Shown here piece by piece: positions 13,201 through 56,911 of a DNA stretch of 64,000 nt (within the stretch, counting starts at the first letter, position 1; each line of letters opens with the position of its first letter). Origin of the DNA: Lytechinus pictus. Its lineage: Eukaryota. Location: contig NC_087250.1 of assembly GCF_037042905.1 (NCBI RefSeq), positions 10,232,001 through 10,296,000 on the forward strand, in the 5' to 3' direction. The position numbers and the translations under genes are program-made. Under the pieces are notes generated by a model. That model ran no database searches and was not told where the DNA came from. It worked only from the letters and a program-made list of their open reading frames with translations.

Positions 13201-15822
13201 AAATTCATGCAAGGTTTAGGCTGGTGTGTAAAATCAGTTACGACATGTAAAGTACTGTACATGACAGGCACAACGATTGCTCACTTGACATTTTTAGCCA
13301 GCTTTCGCAAGGCCATGCTTTTGCCCCCTAATTCACCACCTTTTTTCGTTTTTGCTAACTCTGCCTTCAGTTCCACATTCTTCTTCCTGCAGTAAAAGTG
13401 CAAGCGGGCATTGATGAACTTGTTCAACAGTTTTGATTTGATGTCATGACAGGTTGGCAGGTCGACATTCCTGTTGCAGAACTCTGCTTCGGCCACTAGA
13501 CGGGTCCTGACATTTGTGTTTTCTGTCAATGTGCATTGTAAACGGCGAAACATTAACTCAACATTTAGGAGCATGTCGTAAGCTTTAGACGAGATGTGCA
13601 TGAGACAACCTGTCTTGTATTCTTTAAGCCGACTGAGTTCTGATGCTTGGTGAATCTCCTCATCTGGTCCTCATGTCACAGCATTCATAGTTATACACAT
13701 GACGCAAGTTATTTCGTTACGTTTGATGCTGTGCAAACAATATCCTGCCAGATTGTACAGGCTGTCTCTTTCAGCTGGTGGTAGATCCTGTTTTGAAGTT
13801 GACTGCTGCTCTGAAAGATGGATGACAATCGGTGGCTCAACAGGCACTTCCACACGCTGTTCCAGAAAGTCTGCCAGGAACTCCCCATCATCTTGTTAGT
13901 TGTTGGTAGCTACCAGATCGTGGAAGAGTCAGAAATTGTGCATTGCTTATGAGCTTCAATGCATACTTGAACTCAAGTGGAGTTGGTACAGGCTTCCTGA
14001 GACGAACAGAAGAGAAGAGATTCTCCAGGCAGTGTTGGGTCAGCCGCGATGTCAACAGGAACGCATGTCCTGCACTCAGCAACTCCTCTGCGATGCTGAG
14101 AACTGATGTGGTAGATAAAATAACCCCGGTTTGTATACGTTTCCAATCGCCTTGTACTCCAATCTTCACTCCCTTGAATACCTCTATAAAATTTCTGAGA
14201 AACGTAGTGGCCTCCTCATACTTTCCTGGATCATGCTGGCTCAGACCCATCACTGGATTTCTACTTGTCATCAAGTTGAACCAGAGATCCAATAATTCGA
14301 TAAACCACGCTGTAGTCAAGTATGCTTCATCTCGCCCCTCTTTCTTCACAAGGTACGTCAATGCACAGCTTACATCATGACTAAGCACCCTTGTCGCATT
14401 TGACACTTTCATCTTGTCGAAGTGGGTTGGTGTGAGAGCAGCCATGTTGAGCTTTGGCGCCAGTTTGAGATCCAGATTTTCCTGAAATTTTCCAAGATCC
14501 TTCAGCGGCTCTACACATGCAACATCAGACTTGAGGCCAAATTTTGTGACTGTCTCTGCCGAAAAAGTGAACTGTTGACCATTCACGAGTGCTGCCTTGA
14601 TGTTCTTAAATAGATGTGGCACATCTGCCAAGAAGTGCAACCACTTTGCTGGGTCCTGCGGATGTGGAATTTTTGATTTTGTCCGGCAGTGCTTTCCACA
14701 TTTGATGCCAAAGCTCTTCCACATTGCACGGTTGGCACTCCCCATGTCACTTGCAACAGCTTCTACGTGAAGACCAAATTCGGACGATCGCTGTATGATA
14801 TCGAGGACAATATCCTTGAACACTGCCCCGTCTGTGGAGTTACTTGTGTAGTGATAACATACTGTCTGCTTCCATCGTGTTGTAATCCCTCCCAGCATGA
14901 ACACTAGTGCATGAGTAGCAGTTCCATCATGCTGGGGCAATGTCACACTCCCCATTAAATCACCACTACCAGCATCATACTCAACACTTGAGGTGAGGGA
15001 CATCTCATCCAGTGTAAGACAGCAAAGTCTCTCATCGGGATGCATGCCTTCCACCTTCAGTTTCAAGAAGTCAAACACCTGTCCTAGGACACCTGGTTGG
15101 AATGACACTTTTTCCATTCTTCTTCGGAGGGTTCTTTCTGATGGAAGCGGGTGATGCTGCTTGAGAAGAACTTTGTAGCCAGATGCACCACATGCAAACC
15201 TCAGCTGCAATGCCTTTTTTACAGTACTTGAGGACCATTCCACTCCTCTCATTCCACCTCGAGAAAGGGCACGTATCTGATCACTTCCAAACAACCTTGA
15301 GAACCGTGACTCTTGCTTCGCTTTGGCCTTTATAACCTTTATACGAGTTTTTCGCATCCGGCGCATATCTGCTTTCAGTTCTTTCATGCGGACTTTCATC
15401 TTTGTCAGCCTTCCTTCAAGCTTTATATTTCGCTGGGTATCTTGCAGAGTCTCTTGTTTACTAGCAGAGTCTTCAGCTATATACATGTACGTGAAAGAGA
15501 GAAAAAAGAAATGGGAAATAATAAATATTGATGCTCCTGCATGTTTAATTTCCATGGCAATAAAGGCACTGAATAGCAATAATTGAAGGGATCTACTATT
15601 AATGGTATCCAGACTATTATCACTTATTCCTTGAAGATGATTACCCGTAACTGTTAATGAATAATGAGCACCTTTTTTGTCCTTCAAAACAATTCAATTT
15701 TTATAAATCGAAGCACACATGACTCACAACCTCCCCCACAAAAAATAAATTAATTAAAAATCAAATAAAATAAATAAAAATAAAATTTAAAAAATGAATG
15801 AATAAATACAAATAATCATTAA

Positions 15823-25864: not shown

Positions 25865-27362
25865 CAGTGGCGTACCGTGGGTCACGGCATTGGGGGGGCA
25901 CCATAATTTTTTTTAGTCACTTAGTGAGCGCGCGAAGCCAGTTGCCAGATAAACTGACCTAATACAGACATTTTAAGGACAGTGCCATTAAACGGATATG
26001 TATATCACTGATCGCATAATGCGAGCGCGAAGCGCGAGCTGATTTTTTTTTTATATTCAGACCTAAAAAGGGATATTATAAGCAAATTTTTGTAATCATG
26101 ATACATATCTATCTCGCTAAACAAACAATGCGAGCGCGAAGAAGTTTACATATTGGAACTTTGTATAGACTACATTTTAGGAATCCATTAAGAGCATACA
26201 TATCTCACCATAGTCATCTAATGCGAGTGCCAAGCGCTTGCTGATTTTGTTACAATTATATACATCTAAACAGATGAAACACTTTTAGTCATTGTAATCA
26301 TGATTATCACACGCATCACACTAATAAAATATTGCGAGCGCGAAGCGCGAGCTGAAAAATATAGGAAATTCAGATCTGAAGTGGACATTTTAAGGCTTGT
26401 TTGTAGGAATTCACGAAGACCATGCGTATTTTATTAACCAAATGATGCGAGCGCGAAGCGCGAGCTGAAATTTTTGTATATATTGACCACAAACAGGGAT
26501 ATTTTAAGGACTCCTTTTTTTAAGGAATCCATTAAGAGTACACAAATCTCACCATAGTCATCTAATGCGAACGCCAAGCGCATACTGATTTTTTAGAATT
26601 ACATCTAAACACATGAAGCACTTTTTGCAGTCATTGTAATCATAGTTATCATACGCATTTTACTAATCAATTAATGCGAGCGCGTAGCGCGAGCTGAAAA
26701 ACATAGGAAATTCAGACCTGAAGAGGACACTTTAAGGCTTGTTTGTAGGAATTAACAAAGACCATGCGTATTTCACCAACCAAATGATGCAAGTGCGAAT
26801 CGCAAGCTGAAAATTTTTGATATTCAGATTAGAAAAAAAGGACATTTTAAGGACTGATTTTAGGAATTCATGAAGAGCATACATATCTCACCAATCCACT
26901 AATGCGAACATAAGCACGGGCAGGAAATGTTTTATATTAAGACCTTAATATGGGACAATCACTTTAAGTAATCATGAAAAAGAAGCATATGTCACTACAT
27001 AAAACAATAATTCGAAGTGCGAGGAAATCTATTTGGTGTATATTGACTTGAAAACGGAAGGTTTTAGTACAATAGGATTATATATCTCGTTAAACAGACA
27101 ATGGGAGCACCAGGAACAATGAAGACTTAGGCCCTGAGCAAATTGCGTTTCATAAAGTTATGAAATTTTTGAAATGTAATATAACATAACATAATTATTA
27201 TATAACATTATAATGAACAATAATTTCTTCTTTCCCATTACGTTTCTCTCCCTCTCTCTCTCTTCTCCTTTTCCCCGTTTTTTTTTCGTTTTTTTTTCTT
27301 TTGCCAGCCGATTGGGGGGGGGTGGGCACGTGCCCCCCATGCCCCCCGTAGTTACGCCACTG
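25865..27362. mobile_element. 1.5-kb hAT-type non-autonomous element rich in GCGAGCGCGAAGCGCGAGC motifs
   Basis: CAGTGGCGTA...TACGCCACTG ends with a perfect TSD TGTACGCC. Inverted family members are at 53835-55137 and 44801-~53590. Confidence 0.9.
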
Positions 27363-27644
27363 TGTACGCCAATGATTGAATGAAAAGCTTAATGTAGGAA
27401 AGGTCCCTATACAGGGGGCGTTGGCGTTATAGAGCCATTTGAATGTATGGGGACATCCCGATAGACCGCGGGTCCGATATACCGCGGGTCCGATAGTCCG
27501 CAGTGTGTGTAAAATTATGATCAGATGTATCAAATGTCATCGAGAGGTCCAAAGGTCAAATGATACGAGACCATGGGGTGCTATCAGGTGCGGATCCATG
27601 GGGGTCGAGGGGGAACTGCCTCACCCCCCCCCCCCACCTCCAGC

Positions 27645-28480
27645 TAAAAAAAAAAGAGGGGGAAGAGGGGAAAAGAAGAGAATAGAAAAGAGAGTAAGGG
27701 GGAGGAAGGAAGAGAAGAAAAGGGAAAAGAGAGAGGAAAAGAGAGACAGAAAAGACGGTGAAAAGGGAGAAGAAAAGGGGGAAAGTGAAGAGAAAAAAGA
27801 GAGGAGGGAAAAGGAAGAGAATAAAAGAAAGGAGAAAGGAAAAGGAGGAAAAAGAAGAAGAAAAAAAGAGGAAGGAACAGAAGAATATTTAAATAGAGAG
27901 GAAGATGGGAAGAAAGATAAGGAAAAAAGAGAGAGAGAGAGAGGAAGAGGGGAAAAGAAGAGAAGAAACAGAGAGAGGAGAGGGAGAGAAGAAAAAAAAT
28001 TAAAAGAGAAAAAGGGGGAAAGGAAATAAAAAGAAAAAAGGGGGAAAAGAAAGGAGAAAGAAAAGGGGAAGGAAGAGAATAATATTTAAAAAGAGAGGAA
28101 GATGGGAACAAAGATAAGAAAAGAGAGAGAGAGGGGAATAGAGGAAAAGAGAAGAAAAGGGGAGAGAGTAAGGGGGAAGGAAGAGAAGAAAAAAGAGAAA
28201 AGAGAGAGGAAAAGAGAGAAAGAAAAGACGGGAAAATAGAAGAAACGTGGGAAAGAAAAGATAGGGGAAAAGAGAAGAAAAGGAAGAAAGGAAGACAAGA
28301 AAAAAAAAAGAAAAGGGGAAAATAAAGAGAAGAAAAGGAGAGAGAGAGAGAAGGAAGGAAAAGAAGAAAAGGGGAGAGGAAGAGGGGAAAGAAAGAGAGA
28401 AAGAAAGAGAAAGGAAGGGGAATGAGGATAAGAGAAAGAAAAAAAGAAAGAAACAAAAGGAGATGGGAAACGAAAGAGGG
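27645..28480. repeat. Polypurine low-complexity tract with an internal ~200-bp duplication
   Basis: The tract is almost purely A/G. AATATTTAAA..GAGAGGAAGATGGGAA occurs at ~27883 and ~28081. Confidence 0.85.
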
Positions 28481-30138
28481 AGATGTTGACCCGGACGTCG
28501 ATTTGATGTTTGAACTAGGTGGCGCCAAAATGACATTCGAACTATGGGGCGCCGAACTGATGTTTGAACTGGGAGGGGGGCGCGAAATTGATGTTCGAAC
28601 TATGGGAGCGCTGAATAGATGTTCGATCTAGCGGGGCACCAAATTGATGTTCGAACTAGAGGAGCGCTAATTTGAATTTTGACCATAATGCGACAAATAC
28701 ATGTTTCAGGGGGGGGGGGGGAGGGCAAAGTTATATTTCACATGGGGGCGCCAAGTTTATGTTCAACCGAGGGCGCCAAATTGACCTTGAACTTAGGGGG
28801 CTTCATGCAAATTCATTTTCGACCGGGGGCGCAACATTGCTCGTATTGCCTGTTTATAGTGAAATATATGTCCTGCCCAAAAAGCTTAAATTAATGCGGG
28901 TGAATTAAAATATCCCGTTTTTACGATAATAGACAAAAACAATGTTTTCGAGTTTTAAGTCTGTTTAGCGAGATAGATATCCTGTTCAGGGTCACAAAAA
29001 AGGGTTATTATCAAATCCAGCTCGCGCTACGCGCTCGCAATATTTCATCAATGAGGTATGCATCCTCTGCATCAATCCTACATGTAAGTGTTAGTGTTTT
29101 TCAAGTCAACATACATAGGCCGATCCACGGGGCAAATATTTTGCCCCCCCCCCCCCCCATGGTGGCGCAAAAAAGGGGTAAGAAACAGAAAACGAAGAGA
29201 AAAAGGACAAGCAATTAGAATAGGAATTATACCTTAGTTCTTCTTAAGTCAGTATATAAAAAATTGAGCTCGCGCTTCGCGCTGGCATCAATAATTTGTT
29301 TAGTTATATACGCATCCCGACCTCACAGTTTTTTTTAAGAGAACGAGAAGCACAAGCTGAAAATATTTGATATTCTAACCTGACAACTGAAAATGCATTC
29401 ATTTCTTAATAGATATGCATCGTGTTCATCATAACAACTACTAACATAGGCGAATCCAGGGGGCCCGAGGGCCCCTCCCCCTATTGACGGAGCAAATAAA
29501 TAGGGAAAAACGGGGAAAGAAAGACAAAAAGAAGGGGAAAGATAAAAGGAGGAAGACGAGTGAATAAAATAAGGTCAGGAGAAGACTTGAAAAATAATTT
29601 TTTAAATATTTAATGTCACTATATTAAAATTTCCCTCGCGCATCACGCGTGCATTGCCTGTTCGATGAGATACATATCTCGGTCAATAAAGGCTGATATA
29701 TAGTTCAAAAGATCAAGTTTTGAAGTCAATATACAAAACATAATTCAGCTCGGACATCGATCTTCATTTTTTTTGTTTTATTTGCCAATTTATTTATTTT
29801 AAGTGCTCTGGAAAATGTCCGTTTTATGGTGTGAATCAACATTTGCAACATTTTGTGCGCTCGCATTATTTGCTATGTAGGCCTACCTTTTGCCTTTATG
29901 TATTTCATATAAGATTATCTAAATATTCCTTTTCATGTGTCTCGATTCTAAAAAAAAATTAAGGCCTATGCTCACGCTGTGCTCTCGCATTTTGGTGAGT
30001 TATGTACACCTATACTGTATATTAATTCTATAACAAACTACCTAACCCCCCCCCCCCCCCCATTTAAACATTTCGAATCGCGATTTGCGCTCGCGTTATT
30101 TGCTAAAAATATATCAACCAATGAATCCTGGAGGAATA

Positions 30139-33688: not shown

Positions 33689-36600
33689 TCAACACCGGAG
33701 TTTTTGCAGTGTAATTACTCCCATTACGGTCACAACACAGGCGCTAATTGCTAAGACAGCAACCGTAATTATTAAATAAAGGGAAGAACTGGAAAGTCTA
33801 GACGGATCTGTTTCTGCACCGCACCCCACTTTGCTAGCCCACTCTGAAACTGGGAAAGAATTTTCAGACCTCATTTCTCCTGCGTTTCGTCCATGTCCAA
33901 TGGCGATTATGGCGAACTTGTACTCAATCCAGGTGCCAAAGTCTGGCGCGAGGCAAGAATAGTTTCCAGAGACGTTTTCACTGATGAATTCAAGAATAAG
34001 ACTGCCATCCGCACTAACCTCAATGGAACGATTCGGTATGGTTGGAGAAAGTGTCTTTAAAATCATCTTATTTGGAAGAGCCCACAATATGGCACTTTTG
34101 TCGATCACATTCAAAGGACAGGGTAATATCAATTGGGAGTTGTCAACATTTACGAATAAAGTTGGATATTCAATCGAGCAAGTCATGTTATAGGTTTGGA
34201 ACTCGCATTCTCCATATACTGCCAGGGTGGCACATGGGACACCCTCTACGTTGCCTGACATCCAATTGCAAAATGACCGTAAGTGACAGTCACAACGCCA
34301 CGGATTCGAAGAGAGGTTCAATTGAATATACCTTGCTGTAACTGGCAATGCGTTCTGGTGTATCAAGGTCAAGTCGTTGTTGTTCAAGTTGAGATGGAAT
34401 AAAGATTTAGTGGTTACGAAAGAACCTTCCTTAATAACCATGATTTCATTATTGTCAAGGTTCAGATAGTACAGTCTGAACAGTCCGAGAAAGCTATCCT
34501 CCTCAATCATCCTGATTTTATTCCAAGATAGCTTCAAACGGATTAGCTTTGGATGCATTGTGTACTTGAATTGATCTGGTACTGAGTAAAAACAATTGTG
34601 GGTTAAATCAAGAAGACGGAGGGATCCAGGATTAAACCGGGGAAATGTTCTGGTAAGTGAGTTTTGAGAGAACACTATGCTTATCAGGGGAGCCTGGATA
34701 ACGAATGAAGAGTTAAGGGACCATGACTTGACAGCAGAATTGTTGGTCATGTTCAGATATTCAATGCTGCTCGAAGGAGACGTGAGCAATGTTGGAAAGA
34801 ACCCGAAGTCGTCCTTAAAGTGAGAGATTTCAAGATGCTTGACTGGGAACGAATCGAATTGGCCAGTAATCTTCACCGGATTTCCAGTGAGATCGAGGTA
34901 ATGCAGGCGTGGGCACATCGAGAAACACGTCCCAGACAAATAAACTATTTTGTTCCACTGGAGGCTAATTGTATGCAGTCCAGTGAGACCGAAAAGCGTG
35001 TCTTCAGATAAGGAAGAAAGGACGTTGTGTTGGAGACGTAGCGTACTTAGCTGGGAAGCTGACTGAAAAGTGAACGGTGCAATGTATCGAAGTGCATTAT
35101 GCGATATATCAAAATATTTTAAGGACTGTCCTATGTATGGTTCATTTGAGATCGCTACAATCTCATTTCTTCTCAAAGATAACAAAATAATATGTGTCAT
35201 GTATGTCAAACAGGAAATGTCATTTTTTATTTTGTTCTCTTCTAGGTTGACGTGCGTTAGAGCTGAGGAGAAAACAGGATTACCCCTTGCTTCATTCCCG
35301 CGAAGATTAAGATGTCGAAGCTGAAGTAGGTTTTCAGTTGAGTTTCGGTGAATTCTCAAAATGTTGTTATTTTCGAGAATTAGTGTAATGAGTCGGTTTC
35401 TTGCGGGTAAAGTTGGGAATCGTCTCAACATATTATTTGAGGCATACAGAGTTCGTAAAACCGGAATCCGACCTATATCTTCTTGTTCAATATCAGATAT
35501 CTGATTTGAGCTGAGGATGACCTTATCTAATGTTGGAAGGAGTGTTAAACACGGAACAATAGTAAGTTTATTTCCAGACAGGTCAAGTGTATCAAGTTTG
35601 GGAAAAGACAGTGTATCCCTAGCTATATGCCGTATGCTATTTTGGGATAAATTGAGGAAGTGAAGTTGTGGTAAGGAAGGTAGACGGTCAAGTTCTACCA
35701 GGAGATTTTTTTCTAAACGAAGATGTGATAGATTGGTGAGATTGCTCATAACTGATTTATCCCATACAGTTATCTTGTTGCAGAAGAGGAACAGGCTCAT
35801 GAGATTGGGGAGGTTGCGAATGTGACTTAAACTTGACAGGAGGTTTTCACCGAAATCGATGTGTGTTAGGTTATTGCAAGTCGTCAAGTCATCAAAGCTT
35901 ATGTTCCTAAGGGAATTTTTATAAGCATATATACTTCTCAGTAATAAACACTCTGGGATAATCAATTCAGACAAATCGTTCTCTGAGAGGTTTAAGTTCA
36001 CCAATAGAGGATAGGATGATGAAAGATTCGACGTTATCAAACTAGTGGTAATTGAATTACGATTTACATTAAGACTACGCAGACTTCTTAGCGGAATAAC
36101 AGGAGCTACCAGTAATCTATTTCCAATCAAATTCAATACTTCAAGCTTTGTCAGGTTCGCAAGGGATCCAATACCAAGTGTTTTAATTCTATTTTCGTCC
36201 AGAAAAAGCACTTGTAATTCCGGAAGATTTCGAATTGCCACAATGTCAATGATATTGTTGTGCCTCAAATCTATTCGTTGTAAATGTATAAGATTTTGAA
36301 ATGAATTCCTGTTCATTCTTCGAATCCGATTGAATGGAAGAATCAGTTTCCGAAGATTTGAAAATCCAGATAACGAGTCAAGAACTTCAATGAGGCCAAA
36401 TGACATATCTAATACAGTTACGTATCTCGGATACAAAAATGTCCCGGCTGAAAAATCAGTAAGAGGAATGCCTTTGAACTCAGCAAGTTTTATGCAATAT
36501 GGTACGACAATTGGGTCTTCAAGAGGGTTCCATGTGAAACGAAAGATATTCAATTCCTGGTGTAAAAATTGCGTCGGCATTCTAGCAATCCAGTTCCAAG

Positions 36601-37042
36601 ATAAATCGACAGTAGTCAGTTTGGGTAACACGGGTTCTGATGGAAAAGTGGTTAAGTAATTCCCGCGAAACGAAATGTGTTTAAGTTCAAGAAGACCTGC
36701 AAAGGATCCTTCCTCTATGTGGGCTATAAAGTTGTTATCCAGGACTAGGGTATTCATGTCGGATTGGCAAGATAGATCATTAACGCTGATTTTCCGCAGT
36801 GTACCAAAGACTAACAGAAAGGTTGTCGTCGAACATGGTGTGCTCGAGGGAATTTTCTCTGCCGAGGAACAATCCACGATCCTTTCCTCTACTGTCCTGG
36901 TGCAACGGCATTTTCTTGGGCAGTTGCTGATCATTTGTACATTAATGGGCACCAAGATTAAGACAATGAATATAGGTAGGCCTATTGTCAAAGAACAAGA
37001 AGCACGAGATCTTACGCACGGCATGCACAGCGGTGCCATCAT
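33689..37042 (-). CDS. Single-exon LRR-Ig-transmembrane protein (signal peptide, LRRNT, ~30 LRRs, LRRCT, Ig-like domain, TM, almost no cytoplasmic tail)
   Basis: A 1117-aa uninterrupted ORF with a hydrophobic N-terminus, a CPRKCRC cap, LxxLxLxxN repeats, NPWRCDC, Ig motifs (LILPCP, ILW, DGSLIL, SGNYSC) and the TM segment LYLIITVAVLAISACVVTVMGVI. Confidence 0.92.
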   Translation of the reverse strand: MMAPLCMPCVRSRASCSLTIGLPIFIVLILVPINVQMISNCPRKCRCTRTVEERIVDCSSAEKIPSSTPCSTTTFLLVFGTLRKISVNDLSCQSDMNTLVLDNNFIAHIEEGSFAGLLELKHISFRGNYLTTFPSEPVLPKLTTVDLSWNWIARMPTQFLHQELNIFRFTWNPLEDPIVVPYCIKLAEFKGIPLTDFSAGTFLYPRYVTVLDMSFGLIEVLDSLSGFSNLRKLILPFNRIRRMNRNSFQNLIHLQRIDLRHNNIIDIVAIRNLPELQVLFLDENRIKTLGIGSLANLTKLEVLNLIGNRLLVAPVIPLRSLRSLNVNRNSITTSLITSNLSSSYPLLVNLNLSENDLSELIIPECLLLRSIYAYKNSLRNISFDDLTTCNNLTHIDFGENLLSSLSHIRNLPNLMSLFLFCNKITVWDKSVMSNLTNLSHLRLEKNLLVELDRLPSLPQLHFLNLSQNSIRHIARDTLSFPKLDTLDLSGNKLTIVPCLTLLPTLDKVILSSNQISDIEQEDIGRIPVLRTLYASNNMLRRFPTLPARNRLITLILENNNILRIHRNSTENLLQLRHLNLRGNEARGNPVFSSALTHVNLEENKIKNDISCLTYMTHIILLSLRRNEIVAISNEPYIGQSLKYFDISHNALRYIAPFTFQSASQLSTLRLQHNVLSSLSEDTLFGLTGLHTISLQWNKIVYLSGTCFSMCPRLHYLDLTGNPVKITGQFDSFPVKHLEISHFKDDFGFFPTLLTSPSSSIEYLNMTNNSAVKSWSLNSSFVIQAPLISIVFSQNSLTRTFPRFNPGSLRLLDLTHNCFYSVPDQFKYTMHPKLIRLKLSWNKIRMIEEDSFLGLFRLYYLNLDNNEIMVIKEGSFVTTKSLFHLNLNNNDLTLIHQNALPVTARYIQLNLSSNPWRCDCHLRSFCNWMSGNVEGVPCATLAVYGECEFQTYNMTCSIEYPTLFVNVDNSQLILPCPLNVIDKSAILWALPNKMILKTLSPTIPNRSIEVSADGSLILEFISENVSGNYSCLAPDFGTWIEYKFAIIAIGHGRNAGEMRSENSFPVSEWASKVGCGAETDPSRLSSSSLYLIITVAVLAISACVVTVMGVITLQKLRC

Positions 37043-37189
37043 GATATAGATGAAGATATAACCCCCTTATACAATATTGCTAGCGATTTCATTTAACCGT
37101 TACTCCAACCACAGTATTAATTCTTCAACTTTAGAGTCGAAATTGTAGATTCCCAAATTTAATTCAACTGGAGGGATTCTTAGATGTTT

Positions 37190-38520
37190 AGATAGGAACA
37201 TCACCGATGGAGGGCCTGAGAAGCTTCTAGATTGCGATAGAGAAGTTCGGGTTCCGGTTAAGACATCAACGATGGACATCTGCAGAGGTTTCAATTTTAC
37301 GATGTTTCGATTGCTACATCAATGACGGGCAACTCGAAAAGTTCGGGTTGTTCAGGTTACAACATCGACGATGGAAAACTATAAAAGTTAGTAGATGTTT
37401 CGATTGCGACCTTAATGCTCTGCAACTTGAGAAGTTTGGGTTCCGGTTACGACATCAACGATGGACAACTAGATAATATTTACGATGTTTCGATTGCTAC
37501 ATCAGTGACGGGCAGCTTGAGAAGTCTGTGTTGTTCCGGTTGCGACATCAACTATGGGCAACCAGAGAAGTTGGTACTGGTAGATGTTGCAAATGCTTCA
37601 TCAACGATGGAAAACTTGAGAAGTTCGTTGTTGTTCCGATTACGGCATCAATTATGGGAATATATAAAAGTTCATAGAGATTTTGATTGCTTTATTAATT
37701 CTGTGCAACTATTAGAGGTTCTGGCTGTTCCGGTTTCGACATCAACGATTGACAACTTGAAAAGTTCGTTTGTTGTTCCAATTCGACATCAACAATAGAC
37801 AACTACAGATGTTTTAAGATGTTTCCAATGCTACATCAATGACAGACAATTTGAGAGGTTCGAGTTGTTCCGGTTGGGACATCGACGATGGGAAACTAGA
37901 GAAGCTGGTAGATGTTGCGATTGCTACTCCAACGATGGACAACTTGAAAAGTTTGTTGTTGTTCCGATTACGGCATCAATGATGGAAAACAAGAAATTTT
38001 TGTAGAGGTTTTGATTACGACATTAATTCTACGCAACTGTAGATTTTCGAGTCGTTCCGGTTGGGACATCGACGATGGGCAACTAGAGAAACTGGTAGAT
38101 GTTGTGATTGCTACTTCAACGATGGACAACTTGAGAAGTTCGTTGTTGTTCCGATTGCTACATCAATGACAGTCAAGTCGAAAAGTTTGTAGAGGTTTTG
38201 ATTGCGACATTAATTCTGCGCAACTATCAGATACTATATATTTTCGGGTTGTTCCGGTTACGACATCAGCGATGAGAAACTAGAAAAGTTTGTAGATGTT
38301 TTAAATTGCTGCAGCAATGATGAGCAACATGGGAAGTTTGTTGTTGGTCCGATTACGCCATCTATGATTGGATACTAGAAAGGTTTGTAGAGGTTTCGAT
38401 AGCTACGTCAATGTGCAACTAGGGATAGTTTCAACGTTACAAATGCGACATCATTGATGGCCAACTACGATGTTTGTGGATGTTTTGATTGCCGCATCAT
38501 CGATGGGCAACTAGAGAAGT
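37190..38520. repeat. Degenerate ~40-bp minisatellite with higher-order structure, just upstream of the LRR gene
   Basis: The core ACATCAACGATGGRCAACT recurs, preceded alternately by GTTCCGGTT or GATGTTTCGATTGC variants. Confidence 0.85.
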
Positions 38521-45179: not shown

Positions 45180-48100
45180 CGTCGCCCGAGAAGCATAGTG
45201 ACGTTAACTGATTTCACGCGCGCAAAAACGATTTCGAGAAAATCGCATTTTAAGTTTGTGGATAATGTTTGAAGATGGATTTCGCAATGTTATCGTTAAA
45301 TATTTCCTTTAATTTTTCATACAAGAAAACTTAAAGATGTCTTTAAACTCATATCAAGGAATTACGAGAAAATATGCGCAATTCGAGATAATACAGTAGA
45401 TTGAAAAGTTAGCGCCCTTATGCTTCTTGAATCTTTGTGGGTCGGTGGGCGCGCATCGGGGCGTTAACTACTTAGCGCCCCGAATCTTTGTGGATCGGTG
45501 GGCGCGCTTGGGGGCGTAAAGCTACTTAGCGCCCTTATGCCTTTAATTAATTATTCAATTCATGAGAAATTAAAGGGCGGAAACCCGTACAGCGCTTGCG
45601 CATTTTGAATCGAGTAGTGTAAACCACATAATTATGATTGTTCCGTTCTCCTTTTTTATTTTTTTAGAACCTTTCACAGGTCATTTGTATTTTTCTGTTT
45701 TTCTCATCTTCATCTCCCTCTTTTTATCGTCCTTTCTTTATGAATTTCTTGTTTTTATTCTTCAGTTTATTTCTAACATGTTCGTCTCCTTGTTTTCCCC
45801 TCATTAGTGGTAAACTGTTTTTTCTCCTTGTGTTCTTCTCTTTATTTTGTGGCTTCGTCATATTCCCATTTATATTATTTCCCTCTCAACTTTTTTTGCT
45901 TTCTTTTTCATTCTCTGATTACCATGTTCTCTATTTGTAGTCTTGTTATTACTTTGTTTCATTTTCTTCATCTTTTTCGCTCTCTTTCAATTCAATTCAA
46001 TTCAATTCAATTTTGCATTTATTTCATTCTCGATAAAAACAATTATAAAGCAAGGTATGAGAAACAATATATTTACAAGCAAGAGTAAAAATGAAAATGA
46101 AATGGGGAACTGCATAAATAAAGCCAAGTGGCCTTGTGTAAGCGCAGTTCCCAAAACATTAATAACATGACATGGTATAGAGAAACAATAAGATAAAGAA
46201 TTAAACATGATGTATAAACAAGAAAAACAAAACATAAAAAGGTGTCAATCTACAGGACAAAAATAACTATACATATTTAAGATATAGGAACTGCTTCAAT
46301 CTTTTTTTGAATGACCTAACAGACTTGCTTTCAATTACATCTCTAGGGGTGGAGTTCCAAATTACAGGGAAATTATGTCTTACACATTTCATTACGTTAT
46401 TTGTTTTAACTGGCCATAGGTGAAATGAATCTTTAAAACGAGTATTGTGATTATGTATCCGGTGATTAAGGGTAAACATTTTATGGATATTAAGAGGTAG
46501 TTTATTCTGGAAATAAAAGAAACCAATTAATGCAATAGAAAAATAATACAAATCATAAATATTAAGAGACTTTATTTTCCGAAAGAGTGGGGCAGAATGG
46601 GCTTGATGATGACATCCCATACATATACGAAGGGCTTTTTTCTGCAATTTAAATAATTTTTCTAATTTTGTTCGACTGCAATTGCCCCAAACAACAACAC
46701 AATAATTAAGATATGACAGCATGAAAGAATTGTATAATAGTAATAATGCAGAAGTTGGAAGGGAGTCTTTTAACCTATATAGAATACCAACACATTTAGA
46801 TACTTTTTGGGTGACTTTTTTAACATGAGTGTCCCATTGCATATTATAGTCTATATAAACACCTAGAAAATTAACACTATTTACCTTTTTAATTGGAACT
46901 TTGTCTATTTCAAGCAATAAATCATTGAGTAAATTAGAAATGCAAGACTGCCTATGGAAAAAAGTAATATAATTAGTTTTACTAGGATTTATTAACAACC
47001 TGTTTGATTTGAACCATTTTGTAACTTTATCTAATTCAACATTGATATCATTTTGTATATTAAGATTATAAGGTTGGTTGTATATTAAAGTAGTATCATC
47101 GGCATACATAATATATTCAAATTTATTTGAGGAATATATGAGATCGTTGATGTAAATTAGAAACAATAGCGGGCCGAGAATAGAACCTTGCGGTACACCA
47201 TGGGTGATACTGGAAAAGTCTGATGAACTATTATTAAAAACAACATATTGGGATCTATCAGAAAGATAACTTTTGAACCAAGAAAGTGGTAAGCCCCTAA
47301 CCCCATAGTGTTCTAATTTGAAAAGAAGTATTTTGTGATCGACAACATCGAAAGCTTTAGAAAGGTCTATGAAAATTCCTATGCAAAATTTATTAGTATG
47401 AATGGATGTCAAAACTTTATCTTGTAATTCTATCAAAGCGTGTGCAGTAGAGTGATTTTTTCTAAACCCGTATTGTGAATCTGTGAGAATTTTATTGTTT
47501 AAACAAAATGAATACAGTCTATTATAAATACACTTTTCAAGCAACTTAGAAATAGACGGTAGAATAGATATAGGCCTATAATTATCAAATTTATGAGGGT
47601 CATCTTTTTTAAATACTGTAGTTATCTTAGCTATTTTCAACTTATCAGGGACCGATCCTGTAGAGAGAGAGAGATTAAATATGAATACCAATGGCTGTAC
47701 AATATAGAAAATAACTTTTTTCAATAAATTAGTACTAAGATGATCAAATCCCATGGAATTGCTTCTACTTAATGAATTACATATTTGAATTACCTCATTT
47801 TCTGTTATAGGATTTAAGAAAAAGGATTTGTCAATATGATCAATGAGAAAATCTTTATAAGAAGTGTCACTATGAGAATTAATTATAGATGTGGTTATCC
47901 GTCTGGAGGAGTTTATAAAATGTTGATTAAATTCAGTCGCTATGTGTTCTGGGTCATAAACCTTTTCACTCCCACTAAAAAAGAATTCAGGTAAAGACGT
48001 TTTAGGTTTGTTTAATAGTGAGTTTATGACTGACCAGGTCTGTTTTGTATTGTCTTTGTATTGCTTTAATTTATTAGAAAAATATTTCTTTTTTGCATGC

Positions 48101-51100
48101 TTTAACATAGTATTCAATTTATTTCTATATCTTTTGTATTTCATTTCATTATCTAATGAATTATTTTGGAGAAAATGTTTATAGTAACGATTTTTCTTTT
48201 TAATGCACCTGAATAAAAACTTTGATATCCATGGTTTATTGAACATCCTTTTGGTAGGTTTAGATTTGAGCAAAGGAAAGTTTTTATCAAACAATTGGAT
48301 AAAACGAGTTATAAAAAACGAGTATGCATCATTAACATTTGTAATATTATAAAGACTATTCCATTTTTCCTGGTAAAGGTCATACTGAAAATTTCTTATA
48401 TTATCATCTGAGTATTTACGAGTAAAGCGAGTTGTATTAGGTTGATGGGAATTAGCACTAGAACATTTGGAGATCAGAAAAATTGGTAGATGATCACTTA
48501 TGTCTGAACATAGACTACCAGAGTCAAAATATGAATCCAAAACATTGGTGAATATATTATCAATAAGTGTAGCTGTGTTTAGTGTAATACGAGTTGGAGT
48601 TTTTATAATTGGGAATATACCTAGTACAGAATTCAGCCGAAGGAATTCGTTAACAGTATCATCATCTTTGAATAAGTCAATATTAAAATCACCAGTTATA
48701 TAAATTTTTCTATGTTCAGTGCATAATTTGTTAATAACACTATCGTAAAATTCAAGAAATAAATCATAATTTGATCCCGGTTTTCTATATATGACACCAA
48801 TATTAGACATTTTATGTTTTTTATCTAGAAAATCAATAAATAAATATTCACAGACTGAGTTGATTTCTTGGTTAAAAACTATATCATTCCTTATGGTGTA
48901 CTGTATATTTTTTTTCACAAAAAGTGCAACGCCCCCACCTCTTCCGGATAATCGGTTAACATTCAGAAAATTAAAGTCATCTATGTGAAAATTGATTAAA
49001 GTATTATCATTTATCCAAGTTTCAGAAATTGCTATAAAAGAAAAGGAATGAGTAATCATGGATAGGAATTGAGAGATATTGTCAAAATTCTTTGGTAAAC
49101 TGCGAGCATTAAAATGGATAAGACTTAAGGTAGAATTGTTTGGGAATTTCCCATTAAACTCTGAAGGTAGAAAACATGAAGATTCAGAAGAATTAAATAC
49201 GTGCAAGTCAGGATCAACATCTTCAAGAGGGTCAGACCTAGGTTCCATAAACGTAATTTATAGGGGTAGCATAATAATGGAAATGAATTAATCGGTAAAT
49301 TTGAAGCAACATTGTAAAAGGATGTATAACTATATATATACATATCTCAAAAGTAATGCTTAAACTATCTTTGCAGAACATCATTATTAAGTAGAATACA
49401 CCTACGTAAAAAAAAAAAACAATATAGCAACAATAAGCAAAGCTTGATAATAACAAAATTGGGGGGGGGGGGGGGCAACAAGAAAGCAGTTCTATATGCA
49501 CTCCTATATGTGTATACAACAGGATAACAGTTGGGGATGACAAATAAAGATAAGTATAAAGCACACTTTTTGACGAGTTTAAAAGTGCATTGAGGTTTCA
49601 ATGTCCATTAACTTGGCAGTATATTAAAACAATTAAAGATTAATGACATAACGCATAACAATCATTAAATACTAACTCTAGAAACATCATCAGCATGTAC
49701 ATATAAAGTAATTGTTGAGAGAAATAGTTATTCCATATGATTACGATATAGATACCTTCCTTTGTATCTGAATATAATTTAAAAATTCAAATAGTTCATA
49801 ATATATGATGGACACAAAAAAGGCGTATAAATCAATAGTTAGTATCAAGTTTTATATTCAGGCTTGATAATGAAAAAAATCATTAAAACAGTTATATTGA
49901 ATAACATATTTATGAGTGAAATACTCCATGTAATTAATCCAGATATTAATAATGTTTTGTCAATAATCTTTTACAATGTATGTTAAGCATTATTTTGATA
50001 GATTATATTGAATGCCAAACGATGTTCAGGGAACAAAATGCATATACTGTATGTACTCATTAATTAACAAGTCCTTTATCCACTATTGATTCATTGCATC
50101 TAGAAAACATGAAGATAATATTAATTGATTCATGATTCTTTAAATGATGAGAGAAAAACCAGATAAAGATGAGATATAAATGTATTTCTATATACATCTC
50201 TTTGCATATTATATTGATAGACTATAAACAAATCTTTAAAAGAAATATTAAGAATGAAAAAGAGTGAACAGTGTGCCATATTTATAAATCATGATATCAA
50301 TGGCTGGAGAAGATAATAAAGAAACATATCTAGATAATTAAAGAGTGTATTGTGTATGTATTGATTTTAATATAAATGATTATGATTAATATTAAGGAAA
50401 TATATATATATACATAATATTTTCATAAAATACATTCAATAAATAAAAATAAGCTGAAATAAAAAAAAATATCATTGCAGCTATTTTAAAGACATATTTT
50501 CATAAGCATTACCTCTTTTTGTTGAGCACTATTTCTATTCTCAATAAAGCAAACTTTTAGTGCAGGCTATCCAAAAATAAGGCTACCTGTAAAGTCTAGC
50601 GTCATGTTTACCTGCACAAAGTATACAGAAATGTAAAACAAATGTCAAGGGGCACCAATCAACTATTGTATATAAAATGTCTTATTTTTTATTCCTGAAA
50701 TACAAATTGTCCAAAATTTTCTTGCAATTTTATCAAAATCTTATTCTTAATCCTACTATGCTTTCTTCTTCTCATACATATCAATTTTACAATGATATTG
50801 TTTTAATACATTCATATTCGTCATACTATAGAGCACTTAAGATCAGAGAAAAATATTCAGAAATTGTATTTAAAAACATTGGTCTGTGGATTATTTTCAG
50901 CTAATTAGCTAGATCGGATCTGCAGTTAGATTGCAAAACATGTGAAAAATCAGCTGATGCCTACAAAATACTGATCACCAGTAATCGCATGTTCATCCAT
51001 TATGACGTCAGTGTGCATAGCGTGGCATTGTTTGTGACGTCAGTGCGCGTAGCGTAAAATATGCGCAGATCATGATGCGCACAAACATAATACGAGTTAA

Positions 51101-53837: not shown

Positions 53838-55137
53838 TGGCGTAACTACGGGGGGCATGGGGGGGCACGTGCCCCCCCCAATCGGCTGGGAAAAAAAAAA
53901 AAAAAAAAAAAAAAAACGGGGAAAAGGAGAAAAAGAGGGAGAAAGGAAGAGAAACGTAGTGGGAAAGAAGACATTATTGTTCATTAAACTGTTATATTAT
54001 ATCATAATTATGTTATGTTATATTACATAAGAATTTTTTTTTCATAACTTTATGAAACATGATTTGATCAGGGTCTATGTCTTCATTGTTCCTGGTGCTC
54101 GCATTGTCTGTTTACCGAGATATATAATCCTGTTATACTAAAACCTCCCGTTTTCAAGTCAATATACACCAAACTGCCAAATATATTTCCTCGCACTTCG
54201 AGTTATTATTGTTTTATGTACAATAGTATGCTTCTTTATCATGACTACTAAAAGTGATTGCCCCATTTTAAATATATAAAAAATTTCCTGTCCGTGCTTA
54301 CGTTCGCAGTAGTGGATTGGTGAAATATGTCTGCTCTCCATGAATTCCTAGAATCAGTCCTTAGAATGTCCCTTTTTCTAATCTGAATATCAACAAATAT
54401 CAGCTCGCGCTACGCGCTCGCATCATTTGGTTAGTAAACTACGCATGGTCTTTGTGAATTCCTACAAAGAAACCTTAGAATGCCCCACGTCAGGTCTGAA
54501 TTATCTAAATTTTCAGCTCGCGCTTCGCGCTCGCAATATTTGATTAGTGAGATGCGCATGATAATCATGATTGCAATGACTACAAAAAGTTTTTCATGTG
54601 TTCAGATGTAATTCTAATAAAATCAGCAAGCGCTTGGCACTCGCATCAGATGACTATGGTGAGATATGCATATTCTTAATGGATTTCTAAAATATATTCC
54701 TTATTTGATAAGTGAAATACATATCTGTTTAATGACATTGTCCTTAAAATGCCGTGACCCACGGTACGTCACTGCGGACATATCAATGACAATTACTTGC
54801 ATATCTAAAAACATGATTGCAAAAAAAATGTCAAAATATTTCAGTCATCCCCCCCCCCCCTCCCATCAACACGGATTTACGCCAGTGGTACGTATCATGA
54901 TTAAAAAAGATTGATTACAATGTCCCTTTTTAGGTCTGAATATCAAAAATTTTAAGCTCACGCTTCGCGCTCGCATTATTTGACCAGTGAGAGACGTATC
55001 CGTTTAATGGCACTGTCCTTGAAATGTCTCTATTAGGTCAGTATACCTGGCAACTGGGCGCGCTTCGCGCGCCGACTAAGTGACTCAAAAGTTTTTGCTG
55101 GTGCCCCCCCAATGCCGTGACCCACGGTACGCCACTG
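53835..55137. mobile_element. hAT-type element (family of 25865-27362) inserted in a (TA)n microsatellite
   Basis: CAGTGGCGTA...TACGCCACTG ends with (TA)n on both sides. Confidence 0.88.
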
Positions 55138-55345
55138 TATATATATATATATATATATCACATTTGTATACTTTCTCACATACGTGTACTGTATCAAAGC
55201 AATAGCTTTGATCCAGCTGAGGCATGGCGGCTTGTCATTGTTCAAAACCCACCTACACCCGACAAAGGAAATTATAATTGGTATAGTGTCGAAAATCTGT
55301 CTATCTGACGGTCAATCGGATCGGGGTTGCCCTAGCCACTAACCC

Positions 55346-55417
55346 GTCTCTGTGGTCTAGTGGTTAAGACACCGGCGTTCAAAGCTGGATGCCCGGGTTC
55401 GATTCCCGGCAGTGACA
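55346..55417 (+). tRNA. tRNA-like gene or pseudogene with anticodon TCA (opal-suppressor type, short variable loop)
   Basis: 72-nt cloverleaf: acceptor GTCTCTG/CAGTGAC (one T-T mismatch), D stem GTCT/AGAC, anticodon stem CCGGC/GCTGG with loop GT-TCA-AA, T stem CCGGG/CCCGG with loop TTCGATT. It is followed directly by TTTTTT. Confidence 0.6.
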
Positions 55418-55569
55418 TTTTTTCGGCATTACCAATTTTTCCAAAGGGCAGATAGCTCCGGGGAACCTTGATTTAATTAGCTACACCTACCATTGTTCTC
55501 TTCATCCATTTCTTTCCCAAAATATTTATATAAAAGAGTTGCCAAAGCTGCTGCACATGTATAATATAT

Positions 55570-55799
55570 AGCAAAATACAAGGTGAATAAAACAACCGTA
55601 GAGAGAAAAATTAGATCAAATTTTCGCCCAGAGGGGTTCATCAGTCATCAGGAAATGATGAATTTATTAGTCAACAGCATCAAGAAACGCACTTGATGCT
55701 GTTGACTAATAAATTCATCATTTCCTGATGAAGCCCAATGGGCGAAAATTTGATCTAATTTTTCTCTCTACGGTTGTTTTCTTCACTTTTTATTTTGCT
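55570..55799. repeat. Long inverted repeat (~110-bp arms, 7-nt loop) with hammerhead-like cores; Penelope-like inverted end
   Basis: A perfect 40-bp inner stem (55645-55684 / 55692-55731). CTGATGA-A-GCCC-AAT-GGGC-GAAA lies at 55725-55747, with a variant on the opposite strand in the other arm. Confidence 0.7.
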
Positions 55800-56911
55800 T
55801 TATACTACCACAACCGACGCAGGACCTTCATTTTTATTATATATATATATATATATTGAAGGGGAAATTTACCCTGCCAATAAGTTGGCTTGAATAAAAG
55901 CTGAAAATTACAACAACAAAAACGGTAGAAAAAGAAGAAGATAATGATGAAGAAGAAGAAGAAGGAGGAGGAGGAGAAGTTGAAGAACCTTCTTGTTAAT
56001 TTTCTTCCTCATTGAAGATCATAGCGAAGTTGGCTCAGGTCGTATAAGAGTAGGAGGAAGCTCTAGTACTGCTGGGCGTATTTCGCGAAGTATAGGGCTT
56101 CTCACTTCTTATGCAATATGTTTTTGTTTTTCAAAATCAAACTTTAAATAATAAAGGTACCATATTTTATGTAAGTATCACACAACACGGCAACTTTGAA
56201 AAGCGCTTGAAAATTGGGTCATTTAAAAGTAAAAGGAAAGAATAAAACAAGCGTACGTGATTCACATATTTTCATTTTTAGAGTCCTATTATTCGAATGT
56301 AAGGGGACGTCTTATGATAAAATTGTGTGAATCGATGAAATAACACAAAAAATAGACAATAAAAACGATATCTCGGGTTACCCCCCCCCCACACACACAC
56401 ACACACACGCACCCTCTCTCCCTCACACACACACACACACACACACACGAGGTAAAGGCGAAATTTGATAATATTGAGATTGTCAATGCATGATCCGTGA
56501 AAAGTGCGGGTTCGCTCCCGAATTCTTTAAATTCACCTTTTTCCTGTAATTTAGGGAAGCACTTTTCCAATGCAGATTCTTAAGAAATAGACCCAGTCTC
56601 TCCGTCCACTTTTTGATGAATTCTTGGACACGCCCTGCACTGCAAAAACTCTGGTGCTGATTTAACACCAGAGAAAAGTGTTAAACAACACTGCAGTTTC
56701 GTTTTGGTCTAACACCAGATAAGTGATTATACAACACCAATTAGTATAAAAACAGCATCGGTTTGATTCCAAACTGGTGTTATTTCAATACTTCTCTGGT
56801 GTGGACATAATATAGATTCCGGGCTGGTGTTAAATCAACACCGGAGTTTTTGCAGTGCGATGCTCTAACGAACTATTCCTCGACCCTTCGGCAATGCAGA
56901 TCTCATTTCTC

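Follow-up and report, generated by a model that had tools for sequence, protein, structure and literature searches.

A strongly expressed tandem repeat with a UCA tRNA lies beside, and is independent of, a Penelope-like element in Lytechinus pictus

Genes for tRNAs with the anticodon TCA would read the stop codon UGA, and one such gene stands at an unusual place in Lytechinus pictus. Within a 64,000-nucleotide stretch of contig NC_087250.1 (positions 10,232,001 to 10,296,000, hereafter the window, whose own numbering we use), a short segment bounded by two (TA)n microsatellites joins this tRNA to a long hairpin whose arms each carry a CTGATGA..GAAA motif of the kind found in hammerhead ribozymes. 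Is this one retroelement that supplies a recoding tRNA for its own protein, as an initial annotation had proposed, or are these neighbours of separate origin? We find two repeat families that are independent of each other: a tRNA-bearing one (55159-55564, family A) and a second that forms the hairpin (55565-55837, family B) and is the end of a Penelope-like element (PLE). The account that we favour, and consider likely, is that two independent retroelement insertions lie side by side in one (TA)n tract, that family A was probably moved by PLE enzymes, and that its anticodon is a passenger.

The layout given in the initial annotation, with (TA)n at both ends, a UCA tRNA and a hairpin with CTGATGA..GAAA cores, was confirmed (Table 1), and the features described are not due to chance. 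The tRNA, found by ARAGORN, scores 61.1 bits with the Rfam tRNA model (gathering score 29, E 8.6e-11). The hairpin covers 246 bp (55562-55807). Its outer arms of 83 nt (55562-55644 and 55725-55807) are 90% complementary, its inner arms of 40 nt (55645-55684 and 55692-55731) are 100% complementary around a 7-nt loop, and its RNA is predicted to fold at -163.2 kcal/mol, against -47.1 +/- 4.4 for shuffled sequences (z -26). The core in the right arm is intact; in that of the left arm, 7 nt are duplicated and the first pair of helix II is disrupted. The sole Rfam signal on the cores is a sub-threshold one on the minus strand (Hammerhead_3, 22.6 bits, where 48.5 are required). The family A copy is a single unit that starts at the left (TA)n and directly abuts family B, so that tRNA unit and PLE stub are in contact with no (TA)n between them.

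Table 1. Features of the (TA)n-bounded locus, in window coordinates.
Feature	Position	Strand	Remarks
(TA)n microsatellite, 5' flank	55138-55158	.	target site of family A
One family A unit	55159-55564	+	without the last ~13 nt (ACTTYACACATTT) of the family 3' end; ~6% diverged from other copies
tRNA gene, anticodon TCA (reads UGA)	55346-55417	+	72 nt, 7/5 acceptor/T stems, short variable loop
T6, RNA polymerase III (Pol III) terminator-like signal	55419-55424	+	directly after the tRNA; kept across family A
Inverted 5'-truncated copy of the PLE (family B) 3' end	55565-55691	-	left hairpin arm and 7-nt loop
Degenerate hammerhead-like core	55620-55652	-	inside the inverted family B copy
Direct 5'-truncated PLE (family B) 3' end	55692-55837	+	right hairpin arm
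Intact hammerhead-like core	55725-55752	+	inside the direct family B copy
33-bp one-sided tail	55805-55837	+	end of the direct family B copy
(TA)n at the PLE copy 3' end	55838-55856	.	tail of family B or target microsatellite

We searched the source genome (811.7 Mb, 368 contigs) and scored the best candidates of each search. With the whole 679-bp stretch as query, the best 40 of 1,516 candidates gave 114 listed matches at 93-95% identity. Two of these are the window itself and the reverse self-match of its hairpin; the 112 others all fall within query positions 1-412, and the hairpin is absent from every one of them. The hairpin arm alone retrieved a different set (179 candidates, best 40 scored, 45 other matches listed). 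Likewise, no PLE open reading frame (ORF) was found within 1.5 kb of any of 31 other family A loci. The co-occurrence of tRNA and hairpin arm that a single cassette would entail was thus not found, and that part of the initial annotation fell: no other listed match joins the two parts. The families do meet more often than at random. At 8 of 29 other family B loci, fragments of family A occur no more than 1.5 kb away; with family A at about 0.09% of the genome (1,724 x 412 bp, by arithmetic), a chance encounter in a random 3-kb stretch is expected in less than 1% of cases. Order and orientation vary among these neighbour pairs, usually with (TA)n in between. The adjacency is most simply explained by a (TA)n target common to both families, without a composite element: A and B meet in the window because both use (TA)n. 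The (TA)n tracts that flank the locus are therefore not the termini of one cassette but target or tail sequence common to two distinct elements.

Longer copies establish what the hairpin is. One locus (L035) holds a 1.36-kb family B copy with (TA)n on both sides, in which positions 310-775 are an inverted repeat (99%) of positions 1149-1613. Across copies (L035, L039, L042, L051, L057), the outer end of the inverted arm falls short of that of the direct arm by a constant 33 bp, while the inner ends differ from copy to copy. Other family B copies extend inward from the arm, and in L035 this inner part encodes a GIY-YIG domain (P0001; PF01541, E 5.6e-6, 27 bits) with a cysteine cluster, C-x4-C-x2-C-x2-C-x2-C, just upstream. 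A genome search with the family B GIY-YIG domain yielded 810 candidates. Among the best 150, which were scored, the best PLE copy has a 982-aa open frame with zero in-frame stops. Part of this frame, a 608-aa 5'-open frame at L063, holds reverse transcriptase (RT) and GIY-YIG together (RVT_1 27.5 bits, E 3e-6, slightly below the 29.6 cut-off; GIY-YIG 23.1 bits, above the 22.6 cut-off). At L034 a family B 3' end lies immediately upstream of the ORF start and so forms a pseudo-LTR (pseudo-long terminal repeat). Homology among family B copies continues into (TA)n, which stands at both ends of L035 and of the other family B copies viewed, and (TA)n also adjoins the 3' regions of other PLE families sampled. 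Excerpts of Craig et al. 2021 (PMC8557442) describe PLEs as 5'-truncated and partly tandem, with a neighbouring 5'-truncated copy in inverted orientation, 30-40 bp of extra tail on one side and a preference for (TA)n.

Family B is therefore a PLE with RT and C-terminal GIY-YIG in one ORF, and it belongs there by ORF content, by its truncations, pseudo-LTR, inverted copy and tail, and by its microsatellite bias. In the window its last ~146 bp stand head-to-head with their own inverted copy, the usual product of PLE integration, and this is an ordinary PLE copy that looks like a bare hairpin because no more than those 146 bp and the inverted copy remain. The suggestion that the hairpin is a Penelope-like end thus proved right, with GIY-YIG, RT, (TA)n ends, inverted copy and 33-bp tail all present in longer copies. 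The RT and GIY-YIG coding sequence and the one-sided tail of these copies rule out a DNA transposon or miniature inverted-repeat transposable element. Helitron ends (5' TC, 3' CTRR plus hairpin), compared by eye, mismatched at the 3' end. Elsewhere in the window (27400-28700), 28/56-bp repeats follow a low-complexity block that is rich in purines and strongly skewed in both GC and AT; by description, this block resembles the purine-rich tract in the 3' untranslated region of the family B PLE.

The motif in the hairpin arms is widespread in these elements. We scanned 27 PLE loci (75 kb) for CTGANGA, a helix of at least 4 bp and GAAA; helix pairing was required, constant flanks and the palindrome were not. 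The scan found 25 matches, where shuffled sequences averaged 0.28 and never exceeded 2. All share the form CUGANGA-A-helix II-GAAA(A/G)(U/C)UUG, and the extra A after CUGANGA is present in 25/25. Helix II occurs in seven different, covarying sequences, and GAA is followed by a self-complementary AAUU or AGCU and then UG. These cores fit the minimal, dimer-forming PLE hammerheads that Cervera and de la Pena reportedly described in 2014. Rfam found no hammerhead in the consensus-like copy L035, and its models do not recognise a core with the extra A. For this reason we call the predicted motif hammerhead-like only.

Family A is organized quite differently, as head-to-tail units. Its period is ~412 bp, as illustrated by tRNA starts at 864, 1276 and 1688 of locus L028, and 403-406 bp in other subfamilies. 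The tRNA occupies unit positions 188-259, in mid-unit, with T6 immediately after. From 47 full units (32 distinct) we derived a consensus tRNA that is a perfect cloverleaf with anticodon TCA, followed by T6. It contains a B-box-like GGTTCGATTCC, and its internal promoter boxes are near-canonical. The window copy departs from the consensus tRNA by four private changes, one of which leaves T opposite T in the acceptor stem. A 48-nt tRNA core has 1,539 exact genomic matches. Allowing any base at positions 35 and 36, a 33-nt context with T at position 34 has 1,724 matches; the first 100 listed comprise 99 TCA and one TCT. Another base at position 34 occurs in just four copies, single variants that make up no subfamily with a sense anticodon.

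Arrays of family A range from about 1.1 to at least 44 units and are found on many contigs, with copies dispersed over all large ones. The long arrays include at least 44 units at 406-bp spacing (G000:C2:8866134-8883639), 21 units at ~403 bp (C4:26000145-26008565) and 17 units at 405 bp (C4:8097734-8104235). Rfam returned the tRNA and no ribozyme in either the window unit (E<=10) or a three-unit array including its junctions (E<=5), and a hammerhead core-motif scan of four family A loci gave 0 matches. As for the origin of the tRNA, the tRNA-Asn(GTT) of the genome has the acceptor stem in common with it and nothing else, and the Rfam tRNA model, run over the genome, brought up nothing but other tRNA arrays. 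One dense array of canonical-scoring tRNAs, at 52-69 bits, places a gene every ~0.5-1.4 kb over 35 kb (G000:C4:9700711-9735957). Words of family A occur in sequencing runs from 10 studies under three organism labels (A, B and C), so the family is common to related species. Several changes in the sequence flanking the tRNA appear in ~40-78% of organism B reads but are missing or much less frequent in organism A; within the tRNA itself, organism B has no listed change beyond those of organism A.

How did these units insert? We examined 41 distinct family A arrays at 32 loci, scoring (TA)>=4 within 40 bp. It adjoins the 3' flank of 35 of the 41 arrays and the 5' flank of 15. The 5' start of the first unit is scattered over unit positions 1 to 368, while the 3' end has one of two fixed positions, ...TGTATAACTTYACACATTT with (TA)n behind it or unit position 374; both of these alternative ends fall in TA-rich spots of the unit. 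Nine pairs of arrays stand head-to-head with their 3' ends outward, and none stands tail-to-tail. In five of the nine, the arms end at 406(+13) and 374, which leaves a one-sided tail of ~45 bp; three more have a shorter arm that stops at 58, 326 or 347, and the last is a 25-bp fragment. This anatomy matches that of family B and of published PLEs (excerpts of Craig et al. 2021, PMC8557442). Just upstream of the 5' (TA)n in the window, 54915-54992 and 54961-55084 belong to an interspersed repeat with the motif CGCTTCGCGC occurring twice, 100 bp apart. Pieces of the repeat that bears CGCTTCGCGC also flank six other family A loci (L012, L014, L015, L022, L026 and L027).

We then aligned raw reads of four public RNA runs to window positions 55100-55900 at >=90% likeness. 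Three of the runs are rRNA-depleted, paired and from organism A, with ~6% of each read, and the fourth is a cDNA run from organism B. These four raw-read runs are the expression data, as no public run listed as containing the stretch is registered as RNA. In the rRNA-depleted runs, 81,381 of 8.71 M, 67,323 of 8.25 M and 67,432 of 8.25 M reads fall on 55159-55564, or 0.8-0.9%, and depth on the unit is 12,000-41,000. First mates lie on the minus strand over the plus strand at ~2000:1. The first mate is antisense in the usual library chemistry, and on that assumption the abundant RNA is most likely of plus sense, like the tRNA. Depth on the family B hairpin is 0-4. DNA contamination is excluded as the source of the family A reads because of the strand bias and the silence of family B; family A is expressed strongly and strand-specifically. 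In the organism B cDNA run, coverage is about 200x, on both strands.

The reads also indicate which form the RNA takes. Depth does not drop at the tRNA borders or at T6 (41,125 before T6 and 38,158 after, in run X21), and no site of the unit shows a pile-up of read ends. In X21, ~2,800 reads join 55564 to ~55181 via 23-26 junction letters, and 2,822 more end within the junction sequence. The RNA therefore continues from unit to unit, as a multimer or a circle, two forms that short reads do not separate. At the private changes of the window copy the RNA shows the family consensus; among the differences listed (>=10% of reads, fifteen further ones unlisted), none lies at the anticodon. The junction variant with the most reads matches the genome exactly at 74 places, within 405-bp-period arrays spread over many contigs, and the long arrays are possible sources of the abundant RNA. 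One unit is predicted to fold into a long rod at -145.6 kcal/mol (shuffles -104.3 +/- 5.4, z -7.7), and for the fold of the 340 nt that separate two tRNAs z is -5.1. At the DNA level the unit is an imperfect palindrome as well, with a self-reverse-complement score of 64 (shuffles -7.8 +/- 19.8, maximum 62), so the rod may go back to an old head-to-head insertion and not to selection on RNA shape.

Is UGA decoded for anything here? ARAGORN gives the tRNA the label 'SeC' from its TCA anticodon. Selenocysteine tRNAs (tRNA-Sec) are about 90 nt long, with a long variable arm and 9/4 or 8/5 acceptor/T stems. The family A tRNA aligns with the standard 7/5 model over its full length and has a variable loop of 4-5 nt in the Rfam alignment, and this structure together with its 72 nt rules out tRNA-Sec identity. 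The long frames of the window, 1,125 aa of a leucine-rich repeat (LRR) protein and 996 aa of a long interspersed nuclear element (LINE), have zero stops and hence zero TGA, and PLE frames of 909-982 aa are open. Of the 150 scored endonuclease (EN) matches, 131 are stop-free and the other 19 hold 11 TGA, 7 TAA and 5 TAG. Nothing in these long frames, or in the mixed stops of decayed PLE copies, suggests that UGA is read as sense. The initial annotation had expected longer copies to encode RT and GIY-YIG with conserved in-frame TGA codons; the ORF is there and the TGA codons are absent. With the 982-aa frame free of stops, the stops of decayed copies mixed, and A and B independent, the idea of a self-supplied recoding tRNA is refuted.

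Published cases place this tRNA in context. In some fungi all tRNA-Sup-CTA predictions come from a tRNA-bearing LTR element (excerpts of Kojima 2024, PMC10886601), and therefore 'suppressor' calls borne by elements are a known by-product. Naiad PLEs of clams and spiders do contain in-frame UGA, which is read as selenocysteine via selenocysteine insertion sequence (SECIS) elements and tRNA-Sec (excerpts of Craig et al. 2021, PMC8557442). Unlike Naiads, which need UGA decoding, family B has its EN at the C terminus and no in-frame UGA, and it is not a Naiad.

As its insertion anatomy suggests, family A is most likely non-autonomous, with the reverse transcriptase and endonuclease of PLEs copying it in trans. 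Its RNA, which is abundant, would be of plus sense and either multimeric or circular. With the alternative 3' ends in TA-rich spots, a nicked (TA)n target may prime on UA-rich RNA by pairing; we infer that it would anneal near the unit end or at about unit position 374. Copying would pass through one or more units and stop early, leaving arrays with a ragged 5' end, and the second target strand would prime the inverted copy. The UCA anticodon would then have come along as a passenger with a tRNA module that was captured or has degenerated, and would not be a recoding device.

Several observations weigh against this account. Searches by blastn and with an nhmmer profile of family A, run against 27 PLE loci and 30 family B loci, returned only adjacent family A insertions. 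The PLE 3' regions compared came from about 8 families at those 27 loci, with seven further 1.3-kb 3' regions included, and the sampled 3' ends are a small part of at least 810 PLE candidates. Retrozymes of Xenopus, in contrast to family A, resemble PLE pseudo-LTRs (excerpts of Li, Clavereau and Pollet 2026 preprint). Since none of the 31 other family A loci has a PLE ORF within 1.5 kb, insertion anatomy is what links the family to PLEs. The hammerhead, the defining trait of retrozymes, is missing from family A by Rfam and by the core-motif scan of four loci. The plus sense of the RNA depends on a library type with antisense first mates. Finally, the tRNA is complete, well-scoring, equipped with its own T6 and intact in at least 1,539 copies, a conservation that exceeds the needs of a decaying passenger, and it may have some role.

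What other explanations would account for the locus? A single (TA)n-bounded Penelope- or retrozyme-like composite, with its own UGA-decoding tRNA for in-frame UGA, would explain why the tRNA unit directly abuts the PLE stub, and it could draw on the family A fragments near 8 of 29 other B loci and on the in-frame UGA of some PLEs, the Naiads (excerpts of Craig et al. 2021, PMC8557442). Yet the two parts are joined in 0 of 112 other listed matches, neighbouring copies vary in order and orientation and are separated by (TA)n, the full-length 982-aa family B frame has no stop while decayed copies mix TGA, TAA and TAG, and Naiad UGA needs SECIS and a tRNA-Sec (same excerpts), of which the family A tRNA has no feature. 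We regard a composite of this kind as very improbable. Family A might instead owe nothing to PLEs, being either a tRNA-derived short interspersed nuclear element (SINE) moved by a LINE or a satellite spread at unstable (TA)n by DNA-level processes. It shares no sequence with the sampled PLEs, LINEs are at hand (an APE and RT copy lies at 46267-49257 in the window), arrays on C2 reach at least 44 units, and a rough first-look count of 73,101 tRNA-like candidates genome-wide points to many tRNA-derived repeats. Against this, head-to-head pairs with both outer ends 3' and one of them bearing an extra tail are PLE anatomy, the window LINE has no similarity to family A, the tRNA sits in mid-unit and is followed by T6, unlike a classical SINE head, and copies with ragged 5' ends are dispersed over all large contigs. 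The twin priming of LINEs is not known to yield the head-to-head anatomy of family A, and unequal crossing-over is not expected to give it. An origin apart from PLEs is unlikely.

A functional tRNA is the alternative to which its conservation points. It could act as a processing or circularisation signal in place of the hammerhead, through RNase P/Z or tRNA-splicing enzymes, or be released as an opal suppressor. Consistent with such a role are the perfect consensus cloverleaf with its conserved T6 and B-box-like GGTTCGATTCC, the tRNA core unchanged in 1,539 copies, the lack of any listed read difference (>=10%) at the anticodon, and an organism B tRNA without listed changes beyond those of organism A. 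Family A also has no known ribozyme and yet shows retrozyme-like expression and junction-spanning reads, and its RNA is rod-like. The reads themselves speak against it: no read ends pile up at the tRNA borders, depth is not interrupted at either border, and among the 15 listed joints there is none that skips the tRNA (14 further joints are unlisted). The rod is possibly a by-product of the imperfect palindrome, and a mature tRNA would be invisible to standard RNA-seq. Long frames are free of TGA and decayed-copy stops are mixed, as far as the window and the PLE copies go, stop-codon usage not having been surveyed. On balance a working tRNA is unlikely. In its boldest form this idea would make family A a ribozyme-free counterpart of retrozymes, with a rod-shaped and possibly circular RNA copied by PLEs into (TA)n, a tRNA(UCA) that does the hammerhead's job and perhaps an opal suppressor released from more than 1,500 copies; we think this improbable. 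Two insertions in one (TA)n, with family A mobilised by PLE enzymes, thus remains the explanation that we prefer.

Among known systems, family B corresponds to PLEs with a C-terminal GIY-YIG, such as Neptune- and Nematis-like elements (excerpts of Craig et al. 2021, PMC8557442). It is like them in its single ORF for RT and C-terminal GIY-YIG, in the upstream cysteine cluster, in the pseudo-LTR and the inverted 5'-truncated copy, in a tail of 33 bp (30-40 bp in published elements), in its (TA)n preference and in a terminal hammerhead-like motif. Nothing essential differs; the window copy is no more than a 146-bp stub with its inverted copy, and the likeness is one of features.

Family A finds its closest likeness in animal non-LTR retrozymes (excerpts of Cervera and de la Pena 2020, PMC7229834, and of the Li, Clavereau and Pollet 2026 preprint). 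In common with these, it has head-to-tail units within 150-450 bp, a self-paired non-coding RNA, very high expression, junction-spanning reads, a PLE-rich host genome and PLE-like insertion anatomy. Unlike retrozymes, it has no hammerhead or other Rfam ribozyme and carries a complete tRNA gene and T6 instead, and it bears no detectable similarity to the sampled PLE pseudo-LTRs. Retrozyme RNA is of unit length and largely circular; that of family A may be circular or multimeric. Short dispersed head-to-tail units are thus a trait that it shares with retrozymes, and a hammerhead in every unit is one that it lacks. It looks like a ribozyme-less, tRNA-bearing relative of animal retrozymes. A full-text literature search, supplements not covered, found no description of a tRNA-bearing, hammerhead-less retrozyme-like element.

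With tRNA-derived SINEs and with Cassandra, Helenus and Ajax, family A shares a tRNA-like module with Pol III boxes on a non-autonomous element, and there too gene finders call thousands of element-derived 'suppressor' tRNAs (excerpts of Kojima 2024, PMC10886601). Those elements rely on LINE or LTR machinery; family A shows PLE anatomy. Its tRNA stands complete in mid-unit, with a terminator at once, and the abundant RNA passes through that terminator. A tRNA-derived SINE in the strict sense does not fit a tRNA at unit positions 188-259 followed by T6, nor was there a match to the window LINE, the sole LINE compared.

If our reading of family A holds, retrozyme-like behaviour needs no hammerhead, and the role of the hammerhead in PLEs and retrozymes is reopened. 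A PLE-style tandem non-coding element with no known ribozyme, at nearly 1% of rRNA-depleted reads, would separate retrozymes from ribozymes. Small-RNA genes are known to hitch-hike with partners of LINEs, as in SINEs, and of LTR elements, as in Cassandra and Helenus; family A would extend this to partners of PLEs. For annotation, the family accounts for more than 1,500 'tRNA-SeC/suppressor' calls in this genome. Should even a fraction of these genes mature, the host would bear a large latent load of UGA suppressors.

The remainder of the window holds further features. The LINE copy at 46267-49257 (minus strand) is the 996-aa frame, with Exo_endo_phos (APE) and RVT_1 (132 bits) domains. At 13888-15693 (minus strand), a 601-aa frame with TNP-like RNase H and GTP-binding insertion domains is a P-element/THAP9-like transposase. 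The 1,125-aa intron-less frame at 33689-37066 (minus strand) consists nearly entirely of leucine-rich repeats (LRR_8, 222 bits), and its atlas neighbours are animal LRR/Ig proteins. Two tandem repeats are unrelated to families A and B: a 342-bp repeat in 2.2 copies at 26175-26909 and a 93/187-bp array of ~1.2 kb at 37240-38413.

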